From positions 25,599 through 89,598 of the forward strand of contig JAKJBW010000007.1 in the NCBI GenBank assembly GCA_022706785.1: a stretch of 64,000 nucleotides of DNA, read 5' to 3'. Both the position numbers and the translations under genes were made by a program. The notes beneath the pieces are model-generated. The model ran no database searches. It saw only the letters and a list, made by a program, of their open reading frames with translations, and was not told the DNA's origin. Source of the stretch: Bacillota bacterium. Lineage in GTDB: Bacteria > Bacillota > Clostridia > UBA1381 > UMGS1253. Below, in pieces: positions 3,587 to 56,457 of this stretch. Within the stretch, counting starts at the first letter, position 1. Each line of letters starts with the position of its first letter.

Positions 3587-4711
3587 TTAATTTAGGTATA
3601 GGGAATATATTTCCTTCATTTTTCCCAACACAATGTCAATGTCATATGCCCGGACTTTTTTCTTGTTATTTTCACCCATCTGCCGGCATAAATCGGGCGA
3701 TTTCATCAGCAGTTCAATGTATGCGGCAGTTTTCTTCGCATCGTCACAGCCGACCAGAAAGCCGTTTGCGCCATGCTCTATAAGGTCTGTATTCCCTCTT
3801 ATCTTTGTTGCAACAGCCGGAAGTCCGGCTGCCATTGCTTCCATCAGCGCCTTTGACAAACCTTCCTGGTAGGTGGTAAAAAGAAAAAGGTCGCTGCACG
3901 AAAGAATGTCACCGACATCAGTTCTGTGTCCCAGAAAAATGACGTTTGCATCCAAATCCAGCTTGCCGCAGAGTTTCTCCAGCTTTTTTCTGTACGGACC
4001 GTCTCCGCATATGCCGTAAAGCATATGCGTTATCCCGTTCGCCTTCAGGATGGAAACAGCATTTAGCGCCTGCTTGTGATTTTTCCGCTTTCTTAAATCG
4101 CTGACTGTGACAATAAAAAAGGCTTGCTGGGGAATGCCTGTTTCTTGGCGGCGGCAGGCAATATCGTCCGCTGGGAGAGCGTCTGCGCACGCCACTCCGA
4201 CGCCTGGAATATAAAAAACCCTGCCGTTTTCAGCCAGCCGAAACCTTTGGGCCAGCGTAAAGTCCTCATGGTTAATGGTCAGCAGGCCATCCGTGTATCG
4301 TGCCAGAAACAGCTCTACAGGATAAAATAGCAGCCATGACAAAAACGGGGAACCTTTAAAAAAGTGAAACCCGTGCGCCGTATACAAAACCTTTGTCCCC
4401 CGGCGACGGGCCTTTATGGCGGCAAGCCTTGCCAAAACGCCGCCGACCGGCGTATGGCAATGAATTAAATCATAGCTGTTTTTTGATATAATAGATTTCA
4501 GCGCTTTGTATGCCCTGACATTTTTAATGCTGAAGGGATTTTTTTGAAAGCAGATGTTATATTTTACGTCGGCATAAGGCACCGCCGTTTCTCCGTTGCT
4601 TGCGACGTGAACGGCATACCCCAAATCCTTGAAGTATTTGATGCAGGGAATGTGAAAATTAATGATATGGCTGTCAACATGCGCAACAAACAATACCTTC
4701 TTCAAACGCAC
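3587..4711 (-). CDS. GT4-family glycosyltransferase
   Basis: 374 aa. TTYQEGLSKALMEAMAAGLPAVATKIRGNTDLI (E-x7-E). Sits 16 nt downstream of the preceding gene, so probably the same operon. Confidence 0.8.
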   Translation of the reverse strand: MRLKKVLFVAHVDSHIINFHIPCIKYFKDLGYAVHVASNGETAVPYADVKYNICFQKNPFSIKNVRAYKALKSIISKNSYDLIHCHTPVGGVLARLAAIKARRRGTKVLYTAHGFHFFKGSPFLSWLLFYPVELFLARYTDGLLTINHEDFTLAQRFRLAENGRVFYIPGVGVACADALPADDIACRRQETGIPQQAFFIVTVSDLRKRKNHKQALNAVSILKANGITHMLYGICGDGPYRKKLEKLCGKLDLDANVIFLGHRTDVGDILSCSDLFLFTTYQEGLSKALMEAMAAGLPAVATKIRGNTDLIEHGANGFLVGCDDAKKTAAYIELLMKSPDLCRQMGENNKKKVRAYDIDIVLGKMKEIYSLYLN

Positions 4712-4727: not shown

Positions 4728-6095
4728 TCATATTTTTATCTCAACCTTGTTATCGTATACGGCCTTCTCCGCTTTTGCGTTTTGGTAAGAGCTTATTTCG
4801 TTCCCAACGCCTTGGGCAGCGTCTTTTACAAACAGCACGCCCAGCGTCTGAAACATGATCTTTATATCCTGCAGCAGGGAATACTCCTGAATATAAAGCA
4901 AATCATATTTAAGCTTGTCCACGGCGGTCGTATTATATTTGCCCCTGATCTGCCCCAGACCGGTCAGCCCTGCTTTTACGTTGAGCCTGTATTCAAACCC
5001 TGGGATTTCGTTTATATATTTCTCAATGAATACTTCCCTTTCAGGCCTCGGTCCGACAACGCTCATATCTCCCAGCATAATATTAAAAAGCTGGGGCAGC
5101 TCGTCCAAACGCAGAATGCGCAAAACACGCCCGACAGGCGTTATTCTCTCGTCATTTCTTGCGGCAAGCACTGCGCCGCTGTGTTTTTCGGCATCCGGTA
5201 TCATTGTGCGAAACTTATAAAGCTGAAATTTCCGGTATTTGTACGTGATACGCTGCTGCCGGTATATTACCGGCCCGCCGTCATACAGCTTAATTAAGCC
5301 CCCGATGACCAGCATAACGGGCAGGGTCGCAATTATTCCGGCGGCGGCTACCAAAAGGTCAAACGCCCTTTTGATTACCCTTTGGTCTTTGGTCAATTCC
5401 AAGGCTTTGCAATATAAAATAGGGACGTCGTCCACTGTAAATTTGACCGATGAATTCATAACAATTTCATATATTTCGGGTACGATATAAACCCCTTTTT
5501 TATTTTTAACGCAGTAGTTAATAATATTGTGCTTCTCTCCATCCGGTATGCCAAGCAGAAAGACATAATCGCACATTTCAATATCGTCAAGCAGGTCGGC
5601 GCTGGTGTAGCTTACCACATTGATCACTTCAAAATTTACAGGCCTTTTGAGAATTTTTTCAATATAATACGAACCTTTATCAGGACCGCCAAAAATAACG
5701 GTGACCTTTAAAGGCTTATTGAGGGTGTAAAAAATACGGTTACATATGTAAGCCCAAAGCACAACTAAAACAGACTGTAGGGCAAAGCACATCAATACTT
5801 TGTGCAGCGTATAAGCGTATCTGTTCATAATAACTAATATAAAGCATGTGCATAAATCCGCAAAAAAAATGGCCAAAACAACCAAAACAACAATTTCATT
5901 GAGCCTTTTCTGACCAATATTAAGCGCATTGTATAGTTTCAGGAAAACCGCGGAAAAAAGCGCAGTAATGAGGATGTTTTCGATATCAGCCTGCGGAAAG
6001 GAGATAATGGCAATGCATAGGCTTATTATGATAATTGCCGCCGTATAATAAAACACTGTCGATACCGAAATGCTTTGCAACAGCTTCTTTAGCAT
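4728..6095 (-). CDS. Polyprenyl-phosphate glycosyl-1-phosphate transferase (WbaP/CpsE-type priming sugar transferase)
   Basis: 455 aa. N-terminal multi-TM region and a C-terminal bacterial sugar-transferase domain (KRAFDLLVAAAG..., DELPQLFNIMLGDMSVVGPRPE, KAGLTGLGQI). Confidence 0.85.
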   Translation of the reverse strand: MLKKLLQSISVSTVFYYTAAIIIISLCIAIISFPQADIENILITALFSAVFLKLYNALNIGQKRLNEIVVLVVLAIFFADLCTCFILVIMNRYAYTLHKVLMCFALQSVLVVLWAYICNRIFYTLNKPLKVTVIFGGPDKGSYYIEKILKRPVNFEVINVVSYTSADLLDDIEMCDYVFLLGIPDGEKHNIINYCVKNKKGVYIVPEIYEIVMNSSVKFTVDDVPILYCKALELTKDQRVIKRAFDLLVAAAGIIATLPVMLVIGGLIKLYDGGPVIYRQQRITYKYRKFQLYKFRTMIPDAEKHSGAVLAARNDERITPVGRVLRILRLDELPQLFNIMLGDMSVVGPRPEREVFIEKYINEIPGFEYRLNVKAGLTGLGQIRGKYNTTAVDKLKYDLLYIQEYSLLQDIKIMFQTLGVLFVKDAAQGVGNEISSYQNAKAEKAVYDNKVEIKI

Positions 6096-42558: not shown

Positions 42559-45500
42559 TCAGGGCGCTATCAATACCTGGCAGCAGATGAAATCGTCAAA
42601 GTAGTGCGTGCCTCCCCACGAGTCTTTCACAACAAACCTTAAGATATTATTATCTCCGCTGTTGAAGGCAAACGTATACTCCTTCCATTCGTCAGGACTC
42701 CAGCTTGTCGGACCGCAGTCCTTTATTAGCACGCCATCTGTAGTATATATATAGAAATTAGCGGGGATATAGCCCGATTTTCCATATACTCTCCATATAT
42801 AGTCGGTATGCGGGAGTAAATACGCATCCTGCCTGAGCCCGGTCCAGCCTGAATTGCCTGTCAGCTTGGCCGAATAGAAACCCCAAAGATGCTTCTGTTC
42901 GGTTGTCACACTAAACACATCCGATGCGGTCCATGCTGAAAAATCACCTGTTTCAAAACTGTGATTGGCAATCTGAGACGAGAGACGGAAGTGCACAACA
43001 TATGTATTCACCTTGACGCCGTCCTGCGCTGTTACTGTTATTGTTATTGTACCGTTGCCTGATGATACGTCCACCACTCCGTTGGCGGGCATCATCTGTA
43101 CTGTCGCGTTTGGATCCGACTTTATTGCTTCTACCGTTACTGTAGTGGTGAGACCCGACACCTCTGTTATGCGTGTTTCGCCTTGGTTCTCTTCCCCAAA
43201 CCATTCCTGATTCAGCTCCGTTAAACCTGCCGTCTGAAAAACAATTGAGGACAATCTGGCGTCATCCGACAGCGGCGGCGGCTCCGGCGCGCCGGCAATG
43301 CGCAGGTCAGAATCGTCTATGTAGTGCGTCCGTCCGGGATAAGAATCTGAGATGGACGGGACAAGCTGGCTGTAGCTTCCGCTGTTGAAGTTAAGCGTAT
43401 ACTGTGTCCAGACAAAGCCACCCGTGTTATTGACAAAGCCTGAGCCCGGCAGGATGCCGCCGCCGTCAGCCGCAGTTCGCAAAATTCTCATCCGTGCACC
43501 GTTGGCAGCGCTGGATTTCATCCACACTGTCCAGGTGTAGTCTGTATAGGGTATTACATTAACAGTCTGGCCAAGGTAAGTCCAACTGCCGCTGCTGGTC
43601 AGTACAACAGAAAGCATACCCGAATGCGCCTGTTGGGATGTTAAACTGAAATGATCCTGAGGGCTGATCCACGGTGTAAACACGCCTGTTTCAAATCCGG
43701 GATTTGCAAGCAGGTTGTTTGCTACCAGGAATTTGATGGTGTATGTATTTAATGTGATGCCATCCTCGGCCCTGACGACGACTGTTGCTGTGCCGCTTCC
43801 TGACGATAGATCAAGCGTGCCGTTTTCGGGTGTCATCTGTACTGTCGCGTTTGGATCCGCCGCGGTTGCGCCCACATTTACCGAAGTCGCGCCTTCCCAC
43901 AGCTTGACTGTATAGGTGCCGCCTTCATCCGTTGCCGAAAACCCTGTAACCGCTGCGGTCGAGCCATAGCCTGACTGGTATGTCAGTGCTGACAGCTTCG
44001 CGTCGCGGGACAGCGGCTCCGGCGTAGGCCAGTCTTTGAGACGCAGGTCAAAGTCATCGATATAATGCGTGCGGTTCTTTTGCGAATCCGACACAGAGAG
44101 GGTAAGCTCGGTGCAGCTTCCGCTGTTAAAATTAATGGTGTATGGCGTCCATACATTGCCGCCTACGTTATCCACAGCGGTAGTTCCGGGGAGCATACCG
44201 CCGCCTTGAGCTGCGGTTCGAAGCACCCTGAGCCTGGCTCCGCTTGCGCCGCTGGATTTCATGTATACCGTCCAGGTATAATCCGTATTTGGGATGACAT
44301 TGACCACCTGTCCCAAATAGCCCCAGCTGGCGGTTCCCGCAAGCTTGACCGAGTGCGTACCGGAACGCTTCTGCTCTGTTGTCACGCTGAATTGCGGCTG
44401 GTTGAAGGTCCACGGAGAAGAATCTTCTTTTTCAAAACCGGGATTTTTAAGAAGATTGCCCCCGACGCAAACGGTACATGAGGTGGTATAACCGCCCACT
44501 GCCGTTGTTGCGGTGATGGTGGCTTGCCCCGGGGAAACGGCTGTAACATTTCCGGTAGAATCTACTGCAGCTACGGCAGGATCGCTCGAACTCCAGTAAA
44601 TTAATTTATCCTCGTCGGGAACATTACTAGGTATGACAGAGGCGGATAATGCAACAGAGTCGCCTATATTCGGAAGATCCACATATTCATAAACAGGCGT
44701 AATGCCTGTAACCGAATATTCAAGCGCAAGAGATGGATCCCCATAAATGTTATACATTAACATCATAGCCCATGGGAAATCGCCGTTACACGCAAACTTA
44801 CCATATCCTCTGTATGCATTATTTAATGAATCACCCGTAGTCAGCCCATCAAGTATAAGATTTTTAGAGTAGTCATATAGTAACCAGTTATTAAATAGAG
44901 ACCAGCTAATTCTTGTGGCGCCTAAAGTGTTGATAGCGCCGCTTAATAAAAGTTTATAAGCTAAATTATCTGTAGCCTCCGGATAAGCAGTCCAACAACT
45001 GGCTTGGAATGTAAAGCTGTACCAGTCATCCAACGTGCTTGCTGTAGTAATATCCATTATATCGGAAGCCCCTTGAGGCCAGCCATGTGTCGACCAAGCC
45101 ACAAGCCCTGGGGATATGCCGTTCCATTGATCTCTCACATTTGTCTGGGTACATGGCACTGTAATATTAGTATTTGGGTCATTTGGAACATAACTGTCAT
45201 ATACACGTTGATAACCATATCCGGCTGGTATTAAAATATCATTTTTTACTTCTTCCAAAGTCGTATATCCTACATCAGTCGGAGTTATTGGTTTGCCAGC
45301 GAGTAAAACGTCCTTAGAAGGAGTGATCGTCCCAGCATCTATAGTCTTTTGCAAAATTACATCGAGATCATTCATGGTTCCATAATATGGAATTCGCCCG
45401 ACTGTTAATTCTCCATAGCAATCCGCTCCACCATCCCCATAATCATCTTCATATTCACCAAATTTGCCATCAGCATCCACATCCCAATTACCGCTCATTT

Positions 45501-46608
45501 CAGAATAAAAGAAATCAGTAGGAATAGGTTGATATTCGTCCAGTGTTAGATCACGATAAGGACCATATGCACATGCCATTTTCATTGGAACAGTACCGGT
45601 GGCCGGGTTAGGGTTGCCAATCAGCAAGGCGTATCTGAGGCTAAGGCTCTCGTAATTTGATTGCAGCCACGCGCGGATATTGTTGGCAGCGGTGTCGCCT
45701 GTCCCGCCGCCCCAGTCGCTCTCGGTCACCACATAAACATCAAACCCTTTGTTTTGCTTGTCTGCTACAAAGGCATTTAATTTGGTTGAATTATTTTTAA
45801 TATCATTTGTTGTTAAGATGACATATCCCACGCCTAGCTGCGACGAGCTTGCCGCGCCCCGCAAAGTACTTGTCATGCTTTGCGACGGGGCAGCATCATC
45901 AATATATTGGGCTGCCATTTCATTATAATTGGCTGCACCCTCAGCAACCATTTTATCAGCACGGCTCTTCAAAAGATCCTTTCCCGGTTTTTTCGTATAT
46001 TTTTTATCCGAAGCCTTTAGTCTGTAGTTAATGACAATATTACCCGCGCTTAATTTGCGCAAAGATTTGGAAACAGGATTATACAAATAAGGGCTTATTG
46101 TAATGTCATCCATTTTCCACTCGTGTAATTGGCCGGTTTTTGATTGTATAATAGTTGAATTGGGGTAAAACTTATCGGCATTATAGATCGCAGCATCTTT
46201 TCCGTTTTCGATCGTTTTACCCTCCGGCCAGAACTCCTTTTTCTCATTATCAGCCGGCACTAACGGTCCGTTGGCCCGCACATCCCAGGATCCGGGCACA
46301 TCTGTGTATTCGTCTCCTTGCATTTCGACCGTTACAGAACCGAAATCAACGTCCGGCGGCAATATGGCGCTGATCTTTTGAATCGGTATTGCGGGTTCCC
46401 CCGGTATGCTGTTTGTTGTGCAATCCGAAAATACCGCGTAACCGTCCTTATCTGTTTCCAGAGATATATCTTGAATCGGAATAGGAATTACGATCTGATT
46501 CGATCCTTTTGAATCACCCTTCTTTGCAAAGATGTTCGGGCTGACTGAAAAGGAAATCAATAAACTTACAAGCAGAATGGCAGATATTCTTCTCATGCTT
46601 TTATACAA
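42559..46608 (-). CDS. Secreted gingipain-like (peptidase C25 family) multidomain protein with a Big_2 domain, three CBM-like and two cadherin-like modules
   Basis: 1349 aa. Signal peptide. C25 propeptide/catalytic-like region (GEPAIPIQ, VGYVILTT, YALLIGNPNP, LTVGRIPYY, STHGWPQG, FQASCWTAYP). Big_2 (SSSDPAVAAVDSTGNVTAVSPGQATITA). Repeated NPGFE...HYIDDFDLR modules. Confidence 0.6.
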   Translation of the reverse strand: MYKSMRRISAILLVSLLISFSVSPNIFAKKGDSKGSNQIVIPIPIQDISLETDKDGYAVFSDCTTNSIPGEPAIPIQKISAILPPDVDFGSVTVEMQGDEYTDVPGSWDVRANGPLVPADNEKKEFWPEGKTIENGKDAAIYNADKFYPNSTIIQSKTGQLHEWKMDDITISPYLYNPVSKSLRKLSAGNIVINYRLKASDKKYTKKPGKDLLKSRADKMVAEGAANYNEMAAQYIDDAAPSQSMTSTLRGAASSSQLGVGYVILTTNDIKNNSTKLNAFVADKQNKGFDVYVVTESDWGGGTGDTAANNIRAWLQSNYESLSLRYALLIGNPNPATGTVPMKMACAYGPYRDLTLDEYQPIPTDFFYSEMSGNWDVDADGKFGEYEDDYGDGGADCYGELTVGRIPYYGTMNDLDVILQKTIDAGTITPSKDVLLAGKPITPTDVGYTTLEEVKNDILIPAGYGYQRVYDSYVPNDPNTNITVPCTQTNVRDQWNGISPGLVAWSTHGWPQGASDIMDITTASTLDDWYSFTFQASCWTAYPEATDNLAYKLLLSGAINTLGATRISWSLFNNWLLYDYSKNLILDGLTTGDSLNNAYRGYGKFACNGDFPWAMMLMYNIYGDPSLALEYSVTGITPVYEYVDLPNIGDSVALSASVIPSNVPDEDKLIYWSSSDPAVAAVDSTGNVTAVSPGQATITATTAVGGYTTSCTVCVGGNLLKNPGFEKEDSSPWTFNQPQFSVTTEQKRSGTHSVKLAGTASWGYLGQVVNVIPNTDYTWTVYMKSSGASGARLRVLRTAAQGGGMLPGTTAVDNVGGNVWTPYTINFNSGSCTELTLSVSDSQKNRTHYIDDFDLRLKDWPTPEPLSRDAKLSALTYQSGYGSTAAVTGFSATDEGGTYTVKLWEGATSVNVGATAADPNATVQMTPENGTLDLSSGSGTATVVVRAEDGITLNTYTIKFLVANNLLANPGFETGVFTPWISPQDHFSLTSQQAHSGMLSVVLTSSGSWTYLGQTVNVIPYTDYTWTVWMKSSAANGARMRILRTAADGGGILPGSGFVNNTGGFVWTQYTLNFNSGSYSQLVPSISDSYPGRTHYIDDSDLRIAGAPEPPPLSDDARLSSIVFQTAGLTELNQEWFGEENQGETRITEVSGLTTTVTVEAIKSDPNATVQMMPANGVVDVSSGNGTITITVTAQDGVKVNTYVVHFRLSSQIANHSFETGDFSAWTASDVFSVTTEQKHLWGFYSAKLTGNSGWTGLRQDAYLLPHTDYIWRVYGKSGYIPANFYIYTTDGVLIKDCGPTSWSPDEWKEYTFAFNSGDNNILRFVVKDSWGGTHYFDDFICCQVLIAP

Positions 46609-46671: not shown

Positions 46672-49600
46672 TTATTCGACAACCACGAAATCCCACGGCG
46701 TATAATTCGCATTATCCGTAATAAGCATAGAGTCAAATTTTCCGCCTGCGCCTTGCGGGATAATGCTTAGCACATGTTCTCCTGCCGTCAGGTTTATTAC
46801 GGCTGCCTTTTTCCATAGCCAAACGTCACCGCCACCCGACGAAGTTACAGGGATGTTAACAAAGGTGTACGCATATTGATCGTCGGCCATAATGCAGGCT
46901 GCGCCCTGGCTGGCAGTGCTTGTGCAAACCCTCATCCATATGTAATACGATCCGGATTTATAGGCCGCGAACGAAGCCTTCAAAGGCGCTGTCTGCCAGC
47001 AATTCCAGGGCCCTGCGTGTTCAAGATTGGTGCCTGTCGCCGCTGCGTATTCTCCGCCCTCGCACTGGATCGACTGTCCAACGGTATATCCCGCAACAAC
47101 ATGTCCGTCATCAAGAGTAGAAAGCGTAGCATCTTCCATCTCTGTCTGGTATATGTACTCCTCCATATCGTCAGCGATGATCTGATGCGGGAGCAGATTG
47201 CCTGTGCTTAACGGCTGTCCCGCCTGACCCCATTCATTATCTCCCCAGGCATACCCCAAACCGCCTTTTGTTCTGGCAAAACTGCTGTAGTATCCTGCTG
47301 AAACATTTGCAGCGTTTGTCAGGCCTAACACCTTTACGGGCGTATTGCTGTTCTCGAAAGTGCCATTTCCAAGCTGACCTAACTCGTTGGCACCCCATGT
47401 CCATACAGTCCCGTCATTTTTAAGCGCCACACAGTGAATCCCGCCTGAATCGACCTGCTCAATTCCCGTTAACCCGGTTACCTGAACGGGAATACTACTT
47501 GGTTCATCAAAGGTGCCGTTTCCAAGCTCACCAAAATTGTCGGAGCCCCATGTCCATACCGTGCCATCATTTTTAACCGCCACACTTGAGTTGTCTGCAG
47601 CGTCGATTGCTTTAACATTCGTCAGGCCTGATACCTGCACAGGCGCATAGCTTGTCTGGGTAGTGCCGTTACCGAGTTGCCCAAAGGTATTCTCGCCCCA
47701 GGCCCACACAGTCCCATCGTTTTTGAGTACCAGCACATGACCATATGATGCTGAAACTGACGCTACATCTGATAATCCGCTTATCTGGACCGGTGACAAC
47801 ATATCGCTCTCAGACATATAGGGCACCGTCGCCCCCCAGGTCCATAAGCTTCCGTCTTCCTTAACGACAAAACTGCTGAAAGCTCCAGCAAAGACCTGTT
47901 TTACATTACTGAGCCCCGCCACAGGTGCAGGCGTACTGCGTGAGGCCGTAGTGCCATCTCCAAGCTGTCCACTGTCATTCTCACCCCAGGCCCACACAGT
48001 CTTGTCATCTTTTAAAGCAAGGCGATGCTCACAGCCTGCGGAAACTTGACTGGTGTCGCCTAAAATAATTTCGCCTGCCCCGCTCGTTGTCAGTTCTCGT
48101 ACATATCCGTCTGCGAGAACATATCTTTCATTATACGTGGATGCTGTGATGTCCCCTTGTAAGTCCGGAATGCGCAACACAGCGCTTAAATGCATGTCAC
48201 GATTAGAGGAAGTGCCATATCCCCATATCCATACGGCGCCGTCCTGCTTAAGCGCGATACTGTCATAGGATCCGACTGCAGCCTGTTTTACGCCTGACAG
48301 CCCTACCGCTTGTACGGGTGTTGCCCTATCCGTTGTTGTCCCGTCGCCCAGCTGCCCATCGTTATTATCTCCCCAAGCCCACACAGTTCCGTCATTTTTT
48401 ACTACCATACAGCTTTGATAAAAAGAAAGGCTTACAGAAACCGACGCCACATCCGAAAGCGAGCTGACGCATTGAGGCGTAGCCAGGCCGCCTCCAAATT
48501 CTTTCCAGGTCCACAGGCTGCCATCCTTGACCGCCAGTACATCGTCACCGTCATAACCGTCTATTTCATAATAATAGCCGCCTACGTCGATATCGTCTAC
48601 TCCGCTCATCTCCTCTATTTCTTGCGGGATAGGTTGATATCTGCCCCATACCCATAATGTGCCGTCTGTTTTCATTGCCAGTATACTCGTCCCTCCGACT
48701 TTTACCTTGCACACGCCATTAAATCCTGACGAAGGAGGTAAGAAACTGCCCCCCCATACCTGTACTGTTCCGTCACTTTTAACGGCGGCGTTATGATAAT
48801 AGCCTGCATCCATCTGTACAATGCCCGATAATCCAGGTATTTGCATCGGTGTTACATATAACTCAGAACTTTCCGAAATTTGGTGGTAGTCATTCCAGCC
48901 CCATCCCCATACGTTTCCATTCTGGTCCAGGGCCAGGATGTGGCCGTCGCCTGCCGATATTTGTACAATTCCTGTCAGGCCTTCTATCTGTACAGCCCCC
49001 TGACCGCTACATCCCCACACGCTTCCGTTATTTTTTAACACATAAAGGCCTGGATTCACCGCCGCAACCTGCTTATTTGGCAGACTGCTAAACAGTTCCC
49101 AGCTCTCCTCGGCTGTCGGCTGGTAGCCGTGCACATCGAAGTCGTCCGCCGGACTAACCGGAACAATGGTTGGGTCTGTCACGCCGGCCACACAATTGTA
49201 TATGCCAAGCATGCTTGCCCCGCTTACCTTATTTTGCAGATTGGAAAGCCGGTATGATGTATTTTTCAGCCGTATTTTTAGGTCTGCGGGGGCCTGCTGC
49301 CCGGCACTCAGCGCCGCTGCCAAAGCTGCCGCGCCGCTCACATACGCAGTCGATACCGAGGTTCCGCTCAGCTCGCCGTATCCGCCGCCGGGGTAGCTGC
49401 TTTCCACATTACGGCCCAACGCCGCGATATCCACGCTCTCGGTTCCGTAGTTGGAATAGTAGCTAAAGCCCATATCCGCGTTCAGCGATGTTACGCTTAC
49501 TACATTGTCAAACCCATATGATGCAGGGTATACCGGTTCTGTATCCACATCCTTGCGCCCATTTCCCGCGGCGCAAACGAACAGCATATCGCTGCTTTGT

Positions 49601-50706
49601 ATCACCTCACGCAAAGCGGGATTGTCCTCACCGCTGCCAAAGCTGCAGTTGGCGATCGTCGCACCGTTTTGTTCGGCATATTCGATTGCGTCTATGATGT
49701 CACTTGTGTAAGCCGAGCCGCCCTCGAATACCTTTAAGGGCATAATCTGCGCCTGCGGTGCCACCGATGCGATCACGCCCGCTATGTGCGTCGCGTGGAT
49801 CTGGCCCATAACGTTATTGTTGTCGTAGGTCAAATCGGTATCGTTGACAAAATCATACCCGGCCGCCAGCCTGCCTGTCAGATCAGGGTGGGTTACATCA
49901 AGACCCGAGTCGATCAGCGCAATTTTTACACCCTGACCTGCCGATAATGTGTGCGCAGCGGTAATGTCAGCCGGCGTGCTGCCCATGATCCCGTCTATGC
50001 CGACTGCGTTCACCGGTGCGGGCTCGGCCGTTGGCGTTTCCTGTGGCAGAGATGTCTGTACGCCAGCATCCGGTATGTCGGGTTCAGCGGTTGCTTCATA
50101 AACCGGCGTGACCTCCGGCGCAGCGCTGGGCGCTTCAGTCTGTTCGGCTTGTCCGCTCAGGCCGGGATCCGGCGAATATGCCTGAGATGACGGATAGAGC
50201 TTATAGTCAGGCTGTATGTACTCAACGGCACTGTCACCCAACTCCGACTTAAGCTGTTGTACATATGCTTCCGTCTCCACCGCCGCGTCAAGTTCAATCA
50301 CGTCTGCATTAATCCGCGCTACCTTGCTGACGCGCGCGTTTGTCACACTTTTCGCTTCCCCGGCATTCTTGCCGTCAGGTCTGCGCCGCACATCCATGCC
50401 CTTAGCTTCATTTATTACCTGTGAAGTATCCAACTTTTTAATATCGTCTCTGCCGGCAACCGTCAGCGCCCTTTGCTTCACCGCCTCGGATCTGTCGGTT
50501 CCGGCAGACTCAGCCGTATACTTAATAATAAAACGATTGGTGTAGCGTTGTCCTTCCCCCATCCGGACAACATCACTAACATCCTCTGTGCTTTTCGTGT
50601 TCTTTGCACGGGCCTCTTGGGCGCCGTTTCCTTTTGACGATACACCCAGAGTCAGACCCAAAACCATACTGATCGCCAAAAATACGCTTATGACACGTTT
50701 CTTCAT
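46672..50706 (-). CDS. Secreted S8 subtilisin-like serine protease fused to an RCC1-repeat beta-propeller and a C-terminal CBM-like domain
   Basis: Start moved to ATG 50706 (AAAGGAGGAAG SD; MKKRVISVFLAI signal peptide). Catalytic triad motifs IDSGLDVTHPDL, HATHIAGVIAS, GTSVSTAYVSGAAAL. About 10 RCC1-like repeats (GxNxxGQLGDGT). Confidence 0.75.
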   Translation of the reverse strand: MKKRVISVFLAISMVLGLTLGVSSKGNGAQEARAKNTKSTEDVSDVVRMGEGQRYTNRFIIKYTAESAGTDRSEAVKQRALTVAGRDDIKKLDTSQVINEAKGMDVRRRPDGKNAGEAKSVTNARVSKVARINADVIELDAAVETEAYVQQLKSELGDSAVEYIQPDYKLYPSSQAYSPDPGLSGQAEQTEAPSAAPEVTPVYEATAEPDIPDAGVQTSLPQETPTAEPAPVNAVGIDGIMGSTPADITAAHTLSAGQGVKIALIDSGLDVTHPDLTGRLAAGYDFVNDTDLTYDNNNVMGQIHATHIAGVIASVAPQAQIMPLKVFEGGSAYTSDIIDAIEYAEQNGATIANCSFGSGEDNPALREVIQSSDMLFVCAAGNGRKDVDTEPVYPASYGFDNVVSVTSLNADMGFSYYSNYGTESVDIAALGRNVESSYPGGGYGELSGTSVSTAYVSGAAALAAALSAGQQAPADLKIRLKNTSYRLSNLQNKVSGASMLGIYNCVAGVTDPTIVPVSPADDFDVHGYQPTAEESWELFSSLPNKQVAAVNPGLYVLKNNGSVWGCSGQGAVQIEGLTGIVQISAGDGHILALDQNGNVWGWGWNDYHQISESSELYVTPMQIPGLSGIVQMDAGYYHNAAVKSDGTVQVWGGSFLPPSSGFNGVCKVKVGGTSILAMKTDGTLWVWGRYQPIPQEIEEMSGVDDIDVGGYYYEIDGYDGDDVLAVKDGSLWTWKEFGGGLATPQCVSSLSDVASVSVSLSFYQSCMVVKNDGTVWAWGDNNDGQLGDGTTTDRATPVQAVGLSGVKQAAVGSYDSIALKQDGAVWIWGYGTSSNRDMHLSAVLRIPDLQGDITASTYNERYVLADGYVRELTTSGAGEIILGDTSQVSAGCEHRLALKDDKTVWAWGENDSGQLGDGTTASRSTPAPVAGLSNVKQVFAGAFSSFVVKEDGSLWTWGATVPYMSESDMLSPVQISGLSDVASVSASYGHVLVLKNDGTVWAWGENTFGQLGNGTTQTSYAPVQVSGLTNVKAIDAADNSSVAVKNDGTVWTWGSDNFGELGNGTFDEPSSIPVQVTGLTGIEQVDSGGIHCVALKNDGTVWTWGANELGQLGNGTFENSNTPVKVLGLTNAANVSAGYYSSFARTKGGLGYAWGDNEWGQAGQPLSTGNLLPHQIIADDMEEYIYQTEMEDATLSTLDDGHVVAGYTVGQSIQCEGGEYAAATGTNLEHAGPWNCWQTAPLKASFAAYKSGSYYIWMRVCTSTASQGAACIMADDQYAYTFVNIPVTSSGGGDVWLWKKAAVINLTAGEHVLSIIPQGAGGKFDSMLITDNANYTPWDFVVVE

Positions 50707-51734
50707 GCTGCTTCCTCCTTTTGTTGTTTTTTTAAAATTAAATGAAAGTTGAGGACACTTCAGCATTTCGGGTACGATATTTCTGCGATAAAATCAAGCG
50801 CCTCTCGCAAGAGGAAACGGCCTCATACAGAAAACGGTATCCGTTGTATGCCAAAAGCGCAACAACAGTCATTTAGTTTTATCATTGAAATGGAGATTCT
50901 GATAGGAATAAAAATCTTTGCCGGAGCTGTTGTCTTGAATTTGCACCCGACCGCCCAAGGCAAGCCTTTTGCGTCGTGATGGCGGGGACTATTCAAACTG
51001 CTATTTGCAATAAAAAATGCAGTCATGCATTTTTTGCCTTTAAAAGCACCATAATAACCACACCCTTCCTGTCGGCACTGTGGGGTAGACACGGTTTTAA
51101 GCGAATGCATTACCTGCTTATTTCATTATTGTTAAATTGCCCATGCTCTGGGTTAGTAAAAAAGTAATTCATAACAGTGGAAAGCTTCAAAAACGATACT
51201 TTCAAAAATTGGATTGAGTCTTTGACAAGCAATTTAAGACGTGATACAAAACCAAACAGGGCTTTTTTCCTTTGCGTTAGTAAATAAGCGCATTTCTCTG
51301 TTCGTGTTTTTTTTTGACTATATCAGACCGTATCGCGTGCTTTATGGGTTGACGTCTGCCCGGATGGCCGGTTTGACTTGTCAGGCAAAAGCGGGAGTAT
51401 TTGCCCATTTTGTAAAGCAACTATACGATTTTAAGTACTTTTTCCAGTTTTATTTTACGGATTCTGGAGTTTGCTGTAGGATTTTGCTAATTATAGGTAT
51501 AATATAGTTCCGAAAGATATTTTTGTCAATTGTTTTCGGGCGCAGGTTTTCTTATTTTTCGACATCCCTTGGCGCTGTCTGAACACATGAGCAGAAAAAT
51601 ATGAAACAGGGTATTGGTAAATGCTTAGTCAAGGGCAAATAAAAGCGGTTGAAGGATTAACTGAAAATATTACTGCTTCGCCACGGAAAAAAAGGCGCTG
51701 CTTTTGATCACGCTAACTATTTTACACAAAAAAC

Positions 51735-51762
51735 TTGACTACCGCATAAAAAGTGATATAAT
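51735..51762 (+). promoter_or_regulatory. Promoter of the riboswitch-controlled transcript
   Basis: TTGACT, 16 nt, TGaTATAAT (extended -10). Confidence 0.6.
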
Positions 51763-51784
51763 AGAGTTGTATATGATATACCCA

Positions 51785-51955
51785 TGTAAAAGGCAAAGCA
51801 TATGAAAGTATGTGACGCAAAGCTATAGGGCCTAAAGATGATGAATCTATGGCAGCCAGTTGCCGGCTAATAAGAAGTGCTGACAGGATAGCTGTATCCT
51901 TATGCCTGTTATTAAAGGACAACTGATTTGTTTCGGTTGTCCTTTTTGTTTTTCA
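51785..51955 (+). promoter_or_regulatory. c-di-GMP-I (GEMM-I) riboswitch with a terminator expression platform
   Basis: aGGCAAAGCatatGAAAgtatGtGACGCAAAGCtatagGGCCTAAAg parallels the Vc2 aptamer segments GGCAAACC-(GNRA hairpin)-GGGACGCAAAGCC-..GGCCTAAAC. Terminator aaaggacaac / gttgtccttt plus TTGTTTTT at 51915-51953. Confidence 0.7.
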
Positions 51956-52002
51956 TATGGCAGAGCACAAAAAAATCTTATGAGTAAAAGGGATGTATAA
52001 TC

Positions 52003-53211
52003 ATGAAAAAACTTATGAATTGTCTGAAACGGGCTAAAAGCAATGAACAAGGGGCAGCCGTTGTGATTGTTGCGGTCTCAATGACGGTGCTGCTGGCCTT
52101 TGCGGGCGCGGCGGTTGACTTCGGTATGGTTTACCTCAATACCTCACAGCTCCAGACCGCATTGGACGCGGGCGTTATGGCGGGGGCCGCCCGATTGCCC
52201 GACACGGTGCTGGCCGAATCAACCGCGAAAGAATACATAGAAAAGAACGGAGTACCGGCACAGGACATTCAGATTTCATTTGGCGACAACAACAGTGTGA
52301 TCAGCGCTGAAAGCGAAAAGGCGATGGGTGCGACTTTCCTGAAAATCATCGGTATCGATGTGATGCCGTATGCGGCAGCGGCCAGCGCCCAAAGAGCAGT
52401 AGAAACGCTTGGCGGGCCGTTTGATTATAAGATATTTTCAGGGGATCCCGACTATACCCTGACTTTGGGCGGTAATTTTAATATTGCCGGAAGCGTTCAC
52501 TCCAACGGCTCACTGAACGCAAACCCGGCCAAAGGCAATATTACCGGTACCGCACAGGCTTGTAAAAATGTCAATATCAATACCTATACCACAACTGTCG
52601 GTCATACGGAGGCCGGTGTGGGAAAAATCAATATGGTTGATTTTTCAAATGTTGTCAGTGAGAATATGCCCGGATCGTACGGTATCGTTTGGGACGCAAG
52701 CTACGTCAATGCGCAATGGACAAAGCAGTATTGGAACGGAAACATAAAAATAACCGGGAATACCCATGTGTCCAATCAGGTGGTCATTAACGGAAACGTT
52801 TATATCGACGGCAATCTGACTATTAATGGCGGTGCGCCCGTCTGTGTCCTCAACGGCAATTTATACGTCAACGGAACGATTGAGTTTAACAATACCACGG
52901 TTGTCAACGGTTGTGTTTTTGCGAAAAATAATATTTATTTCAAAGGCGGCGGCTTGTCCCTGAACACCACCAGTACAGTATGTGTCTATTCGCAGCAGGG
53001 AAGCATTGATATCAGCACCGCGTCAAGTGAAGTGAGAGGGATGATATACGCCCCAAACGGAACGGTGCAGATCGCGGGCGGCACAACCACCTTTTATGGC
53101 AGCATTATTGGCAACAGGGTATCGGGTATCCCTGCCAATCTGCTCATGAAAGACCCTGACGTTACCTTGCCCTTTATCCATTCCTCCTACAAAATACGCC
53201 TGGTGCGGTAA
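52003..53211 (+). CDS. TadE/TadG-like (Flp-pilus pseudopilin-type N-terminus) protein with a beta-helix repeat body
   Basis: 402 aa. NEQGAAVVIVAVSMTVLLAFAGAAVDFGMVYL...LDAGVMAGA, then Asn/Gly-rich repeats (GNIKITGNTHVSNQVVINGNVYIDGNLTINGG). Confidence 0.6.
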   Translation: MKKLMNCLKRAKSNEQGAAVVIVAVSMTVLLAFAGAAVDFGMVYLNTSQLQTALDAGVMAGAARLPDTVLAESTAKEYIEKNGVPAQDIQISFGDNNSVISAESEKAMGATFLKIIGIDVMPYAAAASAQRAVETLGGPFDYKIFSGDPDYTLTLGGNFNIAGSVHSNGSLNANPAKGNITGTAQACKNVNINTYTTTVGHTEAGVGKINMVDFSNVVSENMPGSYGIVWDASYVNAQWTKQYWNGNIKITGNTHVSNQVVINGNVYIDGNLTINGGAPVCVLNGNLYVNGTIEFNNTTVVNGCVFAKNNIYFKGGGLSLNTTSTVCVYSQQGSIDISTASSEVRGMIYAPNGTVQIAGGTTTFYGSIIGNRVSGIPANLLMKDPDVTLPFIHSSYKIRLVR

Positions 53212-53331
53212 GCGCAAGGTGCCCGGATTTTGAGATTTATGCAAACGGCTTATGCGTATGCCGGCCTGCCGCGAAAAAAACATCGCAATCTGTCTGCAAA
53301 TATGGTATGATAGATACCGGAGTGAGCGCAG

Positions 53332-54414
53332 ATGAAAAAAACGGTGTTTGAAAACAACAATAATCCGCAGCTTTGCGGGATAGTGCAGCCGCTTTTAAGG
53401 TGGTATGCCGAAAACGCACGGGTGCTGCCGTGGCGGGAAAATACGGACCCTTACCGGGTATGGGTGTCTGAGATCATGCTGCAGCAGACGCAGGTGGAAA
53501 CCGTAACGCCTTATTTTGACCGTTTTATGCGGCAGTTTCCGGATATACAAAGCCTGGCGCACGCAGAGGAGGAAGCGCTTTTAAAGGTATGGGAGGGCCT
53601 GGGGTATTATACGCGGGCACGCAACCTGCAAAAAGCGGCCCGGATCATCGTGCAAAAATACGCCGGGCGCTTTCCCTTTTCTTACGACGAGATACGCGCC
53701 CTGCCCGGCATTGGGGCATACACCGCCGGCGCTGTCGCCTCCATTTGCTTCGGCCAGCCCACCCCGGCGGTGGACGGGAATGTGGTGCGGGTGGTCGCAA
53801 GGCTTACCGGGTATGACGGGGACACGGCCCATCCAAAGGTGAAAGAGCAGATAGCGGCGGCTTTGCGCGGGGTTTATCCGGCGTCCCAGAGCGCCGACTT
53901 CACGCAAAGCCTGATGGAGCTCGGCGCTACAGTCTGTTTGCCGAGGGGAGCGCCCAAATGCGAAAGCTGCCCGGTTAATTCGTTGTGCATGGCATACCAG
54001 ACAGGCACGCAAATGGCGATTCCGGTAAAGGTTAGTAAAAAGCCCCGGAAAAAGGAACAAAAAACGGTGCTGCTGCTTTGCTGCGGCGATAAAATCGCGC
54101 TCCGGCGGCGGGAGGCGGGGGGCTTGCTTGGCGGGCTTTGGGAATTTCCGAATTCAGACGGCAGCCTAACTGTCCAGGAAGTAAGGCGCATACTGGACTG
54201 GTGGCATATATCGGTTGTCAGTGTGGCGGAAAGCGTACGCAAAAAGCACATTTTTACCCATATCGAATGGGATATGAGCAGCTATATCATCATCTGCGAA
54301 AATATGCCGCAAGATTTTTTGTGGGTGACCAGGGAAACGCTTGAAAAGCAGATAGCCTTGCCGTCTGCTTTCCAGGCTTTTCGGCGTGTGTTTTTTTGCA
54401 CGCTTGCGGACTGA
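53332..54414 (+). CDS. mutY: A/G-specific adenine DNA glycosylase
   Basis: 360 aa. PWRENTDPYRVWVSEIMLQQTQV, HhH-GPD, 4Fe-4S cluster CLPRGAPKCESCPVNSLC, NUDIX-like C-terminus. Confidence 0.9.
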   Translation: MKKTVFENNNNPQLCGIVQPLLRWYAENARVLPWRENTDPYRVWVSEIMLQQTQVETVTPYFDRFMRQFPDIQSLAHAEEEALLKVWEGLGYYTRARNLQKAARIIVQKYAGRFPFSYDEIRALPGIGAYTAGAVASICFGQPTPAVDGNVVRVVARLTGYDGDTAHPKVKEQIAAALRGVYPASQSADFTQSLMELGATVCLPRGAPKCESCPVNSLCMAYQTGTQMAIPVKVSKKPRKKEQKTVLLLCCGDKIALRRREAGGLLGGLWEFPNSDGSLTVQEVRRILDWWHISVVSVAESVRKKHIFTHIEWDMSSYIIICENMPQDFLWVTRETLEKQIALPSAFQAFRRVFFCTLAD

Positions 54415-54764: not shown

Positions 54765-54938
54765 TTATTCTGCGTTTTCACGTTCCTTATAGTGTTCGCA
54801 GGCCTTTGCGGCAGTTTCCCGCTTTTTTAATCGGGGATAAACGCAGTGCCCATACCAAAGCTCGCGATAGCTGAGCCCATGTTTGATATAGTGCTGCCTG
54901 AAATGCCTGCAATTTTTGCAGATATTATTCTCATTCAT
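54765..54938 (-). CDS. Small Cys-rich protein (57 aa)
   Basis: MNENNICKNCRHFRQHYIKHGLSYRELWYGHCVYPRLKK...ACEHY. Overlaps the stop of the upstream RHH gene by 8 nt. Not in the ORF track. Confidence 0.4.
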   Translation of the reverse strand: MNENNICKNCRHFRQHYIKHGLSYRELWYGHCVYPRLKKRETAAKACEHYKERENAE

Positions 54939-55113
54939 TTTTAATTATCTCCCGATTAAATATATACTTTTTCAGCAAATCCTCAATCGCTTCATCCAGC
55001 AATTTGGTCTTGGGTATTCTGGTCCGCTCAGCCAAGCGGTTAAAAGATGGCACCAACTCATTTTTCAACGAAGACGTAAAGCGTGTTCTGTTTTTCAAAA
55101 ACGGCTCAGCCAT
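54931..55113 (-). CDS. Ribbon-helix-helix (CopG-like) DNA-binding protein
   Basis: 60 aa. TSSLKNELVPSFNRLAERTRIPKTKLLDEAIEDLLKKY fits a beta-strand plus two helices RHH pattern. Confidence 0.55.
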   Translation of the reverse strand: MAEPFLKNRTRFTSSLKNELVPSFNRLAERTRIPKTKLLDEAIEDLLKKYIFNREIIKNE

Positions 55114-56229: not shown

Positions 56230-56457
56230 ATGTATCAGAATATACGCAGCCTGCGTGAGGACAATGACTGGACGCAGAAGCGGGTGGCAGATTATTTGCA
56301 TTGCAGCCAGCGGGTCTACAGCAACTATGAGCGCGGTGATGTGGATATTCCCACAGCTGCTTTGATTAAGCTTGCCGATTTGCATGAAACAAGCACGGAT
56401 TATTTATTAGGCAGAACAAAGATTAAAACGGCTTATCCCAAAACTGAGTCGGTGTGA
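56230..56457 (+). CDS. XRE-family HTH transcriptional regulator
   Basis: 75 aa. IRSLREDNDWTQKRVADYLHCSQRVYSNYERG. GAGGTG SD. Confidence 0.8.
   Translation: MYQNIRSLREDNDWTQKRVADYLHCSQRVYSNYERGDVDIPTAALIKLADLHETSTDYLLGRTKIKTAYPKTESV

Follow-up and report, generated by a model that had tools for sequence, protein, structure and literature searches.

The 64-kb stretch of a Clostridia genome analyzed here (Bacillota bacterium, contig JAKJBW010000007.1; hereafter, the window) carries, ahead of a solitary gene for a TadE/G-like pilus protein (52003-53211), a sequence that had been noticed as a candidate class I cyclic di-GMP (c-di-GMP) riboswitch, or GEMM-I element, followed by a transcription terminator. 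The locus raises two questions, namely, whether this element is indeed such a riboswitch and, if so, in which direction it works, the original prediction having left the direction open. The ligand could promote termination, hence switching the gene OFF, or it could prevent termination, hence switching the gene ON. Judged by its sequence, the element at 51782-51867 is a true class I c-di-GMP riboswitch, though an ordinary one, and is followed by a terminator. Terminator-based transcriptional gating of 52003-53211 is the obvious reading of this anatomy, and from the structure and the related leaders we predict, with a probability of roughly 0.7, an OFF-type switch, in which c-di-GMP would promote termination and lower the expression of the gene.

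Scanning the whole window with cmscan against all 4227 Rfam families, with the gathering scores as the cut-off, we obtained four matches, three of them to tRNAs and one to RF01051 (c-di-GMP-I). The latter, the single match of its family in the window, lies on the + strand at 51782-51867, covers the model in full (positions 1-87 of 87) and scores 76.1 bits against the gathering score of 35 (E 3.6e-13), so that the covariance-model check suggested beforehand for the GEMM-I call was passed by a wide margin. At permissive E-values, nothing beyond sub-gathering noise was seen for a second riboswitch on either strand of 50600-52100, for example in front of the divergent protease gene. As read from the sequence, the elements follow each other on the + strand in the order promoter, aptamer, linker hairpin, terminator, ribosome-binding site and ATG, with the following coordinates.

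51735..51762, + strand: sigma-70-type promoter (-35 TTGACT 51735-51740; 16-nt spacer; TG 51754-51755; -10 TATAAT 51757-51762)
51782..51867, + strand: c-di-GMP-I (GEMM-I) aptamer, as assigned by the RF01051 match, the pair list, covariation and the invariant columns
51793-51818, + strand: first aptamer hairpin (2-bp stem 51793-51794/51817-51818; 6-bp stem 51798-51803/51808-51813; 3-nt internal loop; GAAA 51804-51807)
51819-51821, + strand: AAA linker between the aptamer hairpins
51821-51861, + strand: second aptamer hairpin (receptor halves CCUAAA 51831-51836 and UAUGG 51848-51852)
51857..51864, + strand: predicted anti-terminator 5' strand CAGUUGCC, which doubles as the 3' strand at the base of the second aptamer hairpin and includes the ligand-contacting C (C92 equivalent)
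51868..51914, + strand: linker hairpin (outer helix UAAUAA 51868-51873/UUAUUA 51909-51914; inner helix AGGAUA 51885-51890/UAUCCU 51895-51900)
51914..51953, + strand: intrinsic terminator (5' arm 51914-51926; loop 51927-51932; 3' arm 51933-51945; U-tract 51946-51953)
51917-51925, + strand: predicted anti-terminator 3' strand GGaCAACUG, inside the terminator 5' arm
51988-51993 and 52003-52005, + strand: ribosome-binding site AAGGGA and start codon ATG, read from the sequence
52003..53211, + strand: controlled gene, an open reading frame (ORF) of 402 aa with PF13400 and PF23981

A promoter ahead of the aptamer and a terminator with a U-tract some 50 nt before the ATG had both been claimed, and both are in place. 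In the promoter scan, 11 of 12 consensus positions are matched, in addition to the TG extension, and TTGACA-type promoters are found at an equal relative position in the leaders of the relatives; transcription would start near 51769-51771. The terminator stem (51914-51945) comprises 13 pairs, five of them G-C, and is followed by TTGTTTTT, with a hairpin energy of -18.2 kcal/mol; its U-tract ends about 50 nt upstream of 52003.

The sequence motifs named in the original prediction can likewise be read directly: GGCAAAGC, the GAAA tetraloop (51804-51807), GACGCAAAGC, GGCCUAAA and CUAUGGCAGCCAGUUGCCGGC are all present, and the tetraloop receptor CCUAAA/UAUGG closely resembles the classical 11-nt GAAA receptor CCUAAG/UAUGG. 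G51793, A51820 and C51863, which we take to be the counterparts of G20, A47 and C92 of the Vibrio cholerae Vc2 aptamer (by alignment to the Vc2 sequence), occupy columns invariant among 21 aptamers of related gene neighbourhoods, and every column invariant among these 21 local relatives is kept in the window copy. With the Rfam-derived structure imposed on the 21-aptamer alignment, 96.1% of the cells pair and eight pairs are changed on both sides; the covariation score is 0.330 compared to the shuffled mean of 0.143, with none of 500 shuffles reaching the observed value, whereas in the controls with the partners slid by 1-3 columns pairing drops to 12-41%. The window aptamer would be expected to bind c-di-GMP. 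It shares with Vc2 the two-hairpin architecture, the GAAA tetraloop, the 11-nt-type receptor and, on the mapping given above, the three nucleotides; however, Vc2 comes from a Gram-negative host, has a clear closing helix and is not known to have a simple intrinsic-terminator platform, whereas the window copy comes from Clostridia, is followed by a terminator and has no obvious closing helix. The anatomy, receptor included, also agrees with the published description of the GEMM motif, with two adjacent hairpins and an AAA joint, the first hairpin having 2-bp and 6-bp stems, a 3-nt internal loop and a GNRA tetraloop (PMC1950547).

As to the direction, in the ON-type GEMM design described in 2007 the terminator at its 5' side overlaps the 3' side of the aptamer (PMC1950547). 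The window leader differs from this design, because its terminator and aptamer do not overlap: the last aptamer position is 51867, and the terminator stem begins 47 nt later, at 51914. When the aptamer pairs were enforced, the linker hairpin and the complete terminator still formed (-46.5 kcal/mol), and since the enforced aptamer coexists with the complete terminator, a ligand-bound aptamer should be unable to block termination. The single competitor that we found for the terminator is a helix using the aptamer's own 3' strand (51857-51864/51917-51925). In the transcript cut at 51926-51932, when the terminator 5' arm is out and the 3' arm is absent, the minimum-energy fold holds 14 anti-terminator pairs and beats the aptamer-enforced fold by 9.5 kcal/mol. 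The linker hairpin is common to both folds; its outer helix, UAAUAA (51868-51873)/UUAUUA (51909-51914), extends the anti-terminator helix and in the predicted fold stacks on it, bringing both its strands together. As the terminator arm is complementary to the aptamer 3' strand, ligand binding should free the terminator, that is, act in the OFF direction.

The proposed mechanism is as follows. The sigma-70-type promoter would drive the leader RNA, in which the class I aptamer would be the first element to fold. Without c-di-GMP, 51857-51864 would pair with 51917-51925 once the terminator 5' arm emerges, the linker helix 51868-51873/51909-51914 keeping the anti-terminator strands side by side; the anti-terminator would slow the formation of the terminator, and the polymerase would read through into the gene. 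With c-di-GMP, the aptamer 3' strand would be locked in the aptamer, the terminator would form and transcription would stop. Switching would thus be kinetic, occurring during transcription, with high c-di-GMP turning the gene OFF.

The related leaders point in the same direction. The pairing of the aptamer 3' strand with the terminator 5' arm appears in the nascent-transcript fold of nine out of ten related leaders upstream of homologous genes, and it is seen in a wider set as well. Terminators follow 24 of the 25 class I copies in the related loci, with 5' arms GGCAACUG, GGCAGCUGA or GCAACUGA, and all three are complementary to the invariant CCAGUUGCC. For 19 leaders, the energy of pairing between the terminator 5' arm and the last 15 nt of the aptamer averages -12.3 kcal/mol, compared to -6.8 kcal/mol for 55 control arms from the window (Mann-Whitney p = 2e-6, the sequences not being independent). 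The linker behaves similarly: its helices vary in sequence by lineage, with the pairing kept (UAAUAA/UUAUUA in the window, GCAUC/GAUGU in locus L005, CGCUU/AAGCG in locus L003), and the linker of each leader finds a better pairing partner in the pre-terminator zone of the same leader than in those of other leaders (permutation p = 0.00025, the lineages not being independent).

The predicted direction agrees with that of the class I switches of C. difficile, which in experiments are uniformly OFF, c-di-GMP binding leading to transcript termination (PMC6200980). These switches, including Cdi-1-3 (Cd1) of the flgB leader, share with the window element the Rfam family, the Clostridia host and the terminator platform; unlike them, preceding flagellar, protease and adhesin genes, the window switch stands in front of a TadG-like pilus gene, and its OFF direction is a prediction. 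The second system to be compared is Cdi-2-4 in front of C. difficile pilA1, also a c-di-GMP riboswitch gating the transcription of a pilus gene in a Clostridia host (PMC6200980), but belonging to the c-di-GMP-II class, serving a type IVa rather than a Tad pilus and working in the opposite direction (ON).

Several considerations weigh against the OFF-type switch. In the window alone, 16% to 21% of the control terminator arms pair equally well with the G+C-rich 3' end of the aptamer, and the complementarity, with p = 0.0175 in the shuffle test, was judged not distinctive by itself; hence the case for the anti-terminator would have to be made by its recurrence across the relatives, which share ancestry. 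In the full leader, the terminator fold is favoured by 13 kcal/mol over the best fold that leaves the 3' arm unpaired, the largest such gap among 11 leaders (2.8-13 kcal/mol); as the terminator wins at equilibrium in the energy model, read-through without the ligand must be kinetic and may be low in the window copy. When the 5' flank and the sequence beyond C51863 were inspected by eye for an outer closing helix, only one convincing G-C pair was seen in the window copy, compared to 3-4 pairs in the relatives (e.g., UGAU/AUCA in L005). The 228 nt upstream of the closest homologue of the controlled gene (66% identity, L044) contain no riboswitch. Finally, c-di-GMP commonly promotes adhesion, so that switching a pilus component OFF would go against its usual role, and some class I switches in other Firmicutes are of the ON type.

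An ON-type switch, where ligand binding would prevent termination and induce the pilus-related gene, would fit this usual role of c-di-GMP in adhesion, and the preference of the energy model for the terminator at equilibrium without the ligand is also what one would expect of it. There are precedents: the founding GEMM paper proposed the ON logic for many copies with the terminator overlapping the aptamer (PMC1950547), and the type IV pilus genes of C. difficile are induced by c-di-GMP, though via a class II switch (PMC6200980). Yet in the window the terminator starting 47 nt past the aptamer forms fully with the aptamer enforced, so neither of its arms is sequestered, and the sole competing structure uses the aptamer 3' strand, so that the ligand would remove this competitor; we therefore consider an ON-type switch unlikely. 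The energy gap, the lack of an obvious closing helix and the riboswitch-free closest homologue, together with the detachment of the gene from any tad locus, could instead be taken as signs of a decaying or ligand-insensitive remnant, with the strong terminator being constitutive and the orphan gene largely silent after its split from the tad locus. This seems still less probable, as a score of 76.1 bits is as high as those in intact tad loci (64-81), all columns invariant among the 21 relatives are kept, the promoter is near consensus, and the ORF is intact and covered by homologues over 100% of its length.

Two further alternatives concern the ligand and the product. GEMM-I variants with altered specificity exist, such as the Geobacter GEMM-Ib elements sensing 3'3'-cGAMP, and the related loci L047/L048 carry a variant family, RF03167, so the window aptamer might sense another cyclic dinucleotide. 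However, RF01051 is the best model after the Rfam clan competition, and G51793, the equivalent of Vc2 G20, is invariant in all 21 local copies, whereas the cGAMP-selective members of GEMM-I carry A at this position; of all the alternatives weighed here, we give this one the lowest odds. Only slightly more credible, and very improbable as well, is that the locus chiefly yields the short terminated leader RNA, which would function as a small RNA, with the downstream control being secondary. Five class I riboswitches of C. difficile have no detectable downstream coding sequence, and their transcripts have been detected (PMC6200980), but in the window the U-tract is followed after 50 nt by an intact gene that has a ribosome-binding site, and the arrangement of a leader followed by a gene recurs in the relatives.

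We also considered, and rejected, the whole-leader equilibrium fold in which the A-rich 5' flank of the aptamer pairs with the U-tract, as the U-tract has yet to leave the polymerase at the moment when termination is decided. In this fold, the flank CCAUGUAAAAGGCAAA (approximately 51782-51797) pairs with the U-tract and the sequence beyond it, UUUUUGUUUUUCAUAUGG (approximately 51943-51960). This is probably chance complementarity of A-rich and U-rich segments, although the pairing could stabilise the terminated RNA.

The 402-aa product of the controlled gene had been described as TadE/G-like, and this is borne out by PF13400 (Tad, putative Flp pilus-assembly TadE/G-like) at residues 17-64, with 30.7 bits against the cut-off of 22.3. 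Residues 259-373 match PF23981 (DUF7305; 38.1 bits, gathering threshold 27), modelled as a beta-helix, and a sub-threshold bactofilin-like signal reflects the beta-helix repeats. The AlphaFold model (25 homologues, mean pLDDT 86.9) shows a long helix at 17-62 that is followed by a small alpha/beta head and then, C-terminally, by a beta-helix. In a fold search of the PDB with this model nothing was found at E <= 0.001, the best structural neighbours, all weak, being ice-binding beta-helices (E 1.9e-3), the Tapirin C-terminal domain (1.4e-2) and the ComZ minor pilin (1.7e-2); hence we claim no more than the architecture of a beta-helix with an N-terminal helix. For the prepilin-peptidase motif, which true minor pilins would be expected to carry, we looked for a G ahead of a hydrophobic stretch in which position +5 is E. 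In the corresponding region, ...SNEQG/AAVVIVAV..., compared on sequence with the family consensus ExGAxxV, the G is present and there is no E at +5.

Probably, the protein serves as a large minor pilin, or as part of the tip, in a Tad/Flp pilus specified by genes elsewhere in the genome. It has been proposed that TadE/F/G-like minor pilins make up pilus tips on which variable domains are exposed, and that additional clusters of tip genes can be found apart from the machinery genes (PMC12075869), a picture of detached tip clusters that the window gene would fit; a role of the 402-aa protein at the pilus tip may be supposed by the same analogy. The closest parallel is the TadE/F/G-like Tip complexes of the Myxococcus Kil system with their KilN-type large minor pilins, which combine, like the window protein, an N-terminal hydrophobic helix, a head and an extra exposed domain. 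The Kil-type minor pilins have been proposed to prime the pilus and to give the tip its function (PMC12075869). The likeness is one of architecture and gene context, and a prepilin-peptidase site is not evident in the window protein.

The gene had been called an orphan, which holds within the 64-kb window: tblastn with TadA, TadB, TadZ, RcpC, A24 peptidase, Flp and TadE from loci L003 and L045 found no other tad genes there, the TadG-like gene itself being the only match. The orphan status is thus a statement about the 64-kb window rather than about the whole genome. A tad-locus neighbourhood is absent from the window, whereas homologues in related loci do have one, with complete loci in L045/L046 and L004. 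A search for GGDEF, EAL and HD-GYP motifs, confined to the window, yielded one weak EAL-like string and nothing convincing. Downstream of the TadG-like gene there is no intrinsic terminator (53212-53331), and the next gene, for a MutY-like glycosylase (53332-54414), has its own -10-like TGGTATGAT; given the lack of a terminator, riboswitch-controlled read-through into mutY is possible.

The homologues (35-66% identity) come from metagenome-assembled genomes of uncultured Clostridia, Oscillospiraceae or 'Bacillota', those of the relatives being annotated as Clostridia, Bacillota, Eubacteriales or Oscillospiraceae, and a few of the proteins are named 'pilus assembly protein TadG-related'. The homologous genes adjoin TadE genes, whether in tad loci or in small clusters of their own; in complete loci they lie between TadE genes. 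For homologues of about 34-50% identity, we observed a class I aptamer upstream and in the same orientation in nine of 14 genome loci, seven of these nine having three aptamers in series. No class I aptamer was found before 14 more distant homologues (26-31% identity, mostly Acutalibacteraceae). The score of the window aptamer is within the range of the tad-locus copies of the relatives (64-81 bits). Four arrangements can be distinguished.

Arrangement A (L004, L045/L046): one GEMM-I aptamer with a terminator, a nucleotidyltransferase/HEPN pair, then a full tad locus
Arrangement B (L007 with RF01051; L047/L048 with RF03167): a riboswitch, then a two-gene unit of TadE and TadG-like genes
Arrangement C (L002, L003, L005, L008, L010, L011, L012): riboswitch 1, the TadG-like gene, riboswitches 2 and 3, then the tad operon
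Arrangement D (the window): a riboswitch, then the TadG-like gene alone

In arrangement A, the tad locus comprises genes for the A24 peptidase, 1-5 Flp, TadE and the TadG-like protein, with L045/L046 additionally containing a second TadE, a second Tad-domain protein, RcpC, TadZ, TadA, TadB and TadC. In arrangement C, riboswitches 2 and 3 directly follow the TadG-like gene and are followed by A24 peptidase, Flp, TadE, CpaB and further genes. By these gene neighbourhoods, the TadG-like protein is a component of Tad loci repeatedly, though not always, under class I c-di-GMP riboswitches.

Class I c-di-GMP riboswitches with terminator platforms, tandem copies and the association with pilus genes, including cpaA, were reported in 2007-2008 (PMC1950547), and the role of class I c-di-GMP switches in the surface biology of Clostridia is well documented (PMC6200980). 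Specifically, Weinberg et al. (2007) listed pilus and flagellar genes as GEMM-associated, among them cpaA, the Tad prepilin peptidase, and described tandem GEMM copies within one UTR (PMC1950547). The relatives of the window locus share both features, the pilus-gene association and the tandem copies. There are two differences: in 2007 overlapping terminators, implying the ON logic, were emphasised, whereas in the window the terminator is separate and the anti-terminator would be formed by the aptamer 3' strand; and a gene with PF13400 and DUF7305, as in the window, is not among the GEMM genes of that paper. In the literature we found no link between GEMM-I and TadG-like/DUF7305 proteins or tad loci beyond the 2007 cpaA entry. 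The combination of GEMM-I with a TadG-like/DUF7305 protein would be a new gene association of a known switch, not a new mechanism, and the finding is mainly a well-supported annotation.

Its value is that it ties class I c-di-GMP switches to an uncharacterised family with PF13400 and DUF7305 resembling a large Tad minor pilin or tip protein, and that it leads to a testable prediction, namely, that c-di-GMP lowers the expression of a pilus component, opposite to the usual adhesion rule. The tad loci of the relatives with three riboswitches would make it convenient to study graded or stepwise control by riboswitches in a natural system. A broader picture, which we offer tentatively and hold to be conceivable rather than probable, is that in this uncultured Clostridia group c-di-GMP represses the Tad pilus via serial OFF class I switches, one before the TadG-like tip gene and two before the tadV-flp-tadE operon, the window gene being a detached, interchangeable tip module that has kept its own control. 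If this were true, the second messenger would set the tip choice and the pilus production separately.

The related loci have several other features. In arrangement C, the three RF01051 aptamers (64-81 bits) lie on one strand within approximately 2.3 kb (in L005, at 3762-3848, 5367-5451 and 5864-5948), one of them ahead of the TadG-like gene and the other two in the interval from its stop codon to the A24 peptidase-Flp-TadE-CpaB operon, and every aptamer is followed by a terminator, except for the third copy in L008. The spacer of approximately 320 nt that separates the riboswitch 2 terminator from aptamer 3 (5526-5863 in L005), when aligned with L010, L011, L012, L008, L003 and L002, contains blocks conserved among five loci, such as CCGATGCAAGGCGCCGGCATTTGCCTTTTTGCGCCGGGT, as well as GTACTACAAAAGTCATCT just before aptamer 3; no convincing ORF, sigma-70-like promoter or Rfam match was found in it. 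The RF03167 elements of arrangement B (L047, 5305-5435; L048, 1097-1227) belong to the c-di-GMP-I-GGC variant, with 60.6 bits against the gathering score of 59, and precede a unit of TadE and TadG-like genes lying away from the tad machinery genes. In arrangement A, the NTP_transf_2 and HEPN genes (L045, 2619-3773; L046, 2403-3557; L004, 1281-2393) look like a toxin-antitoxin module; being situated between the riboswitch terminator and the first tad gene, they would be co-regulated by c-di-GMP.

In the window itself, the riboswitch promoter is separated from the divergent S8 protease gene by approximately 970 nt (50767-51734) without a Pfam-recognisable ORF or an Rfam match, which is unusually long for a bacterial intergenic region; the G+C content is low (37% over 51000-51999). 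Two very large predicted secreted peptidases are encoded on the - strand, divergently from the RF01051 element: a C25 (gingipain-like) peptidase with Big_2, CBM_4_9 and cadherin-like domains (42559-46608) and an S8 subtilase fused to many RCC1 repeats (46672-50766), and no riboswitch was found before either gene. On the other side, a small ribbon-helix-helix protein (54765-55113, - strand; RHH_3, E 1.5e-16) is encoded in overlap with a 57-aa cysteine-rich ORF, and a separate XRE-type helix-turn-helix protein is encoded at 56230-56457 on the + strand. The genes of these two DNA-binding families may be remnants of mobile elements or of toxin-antitoxin systems.

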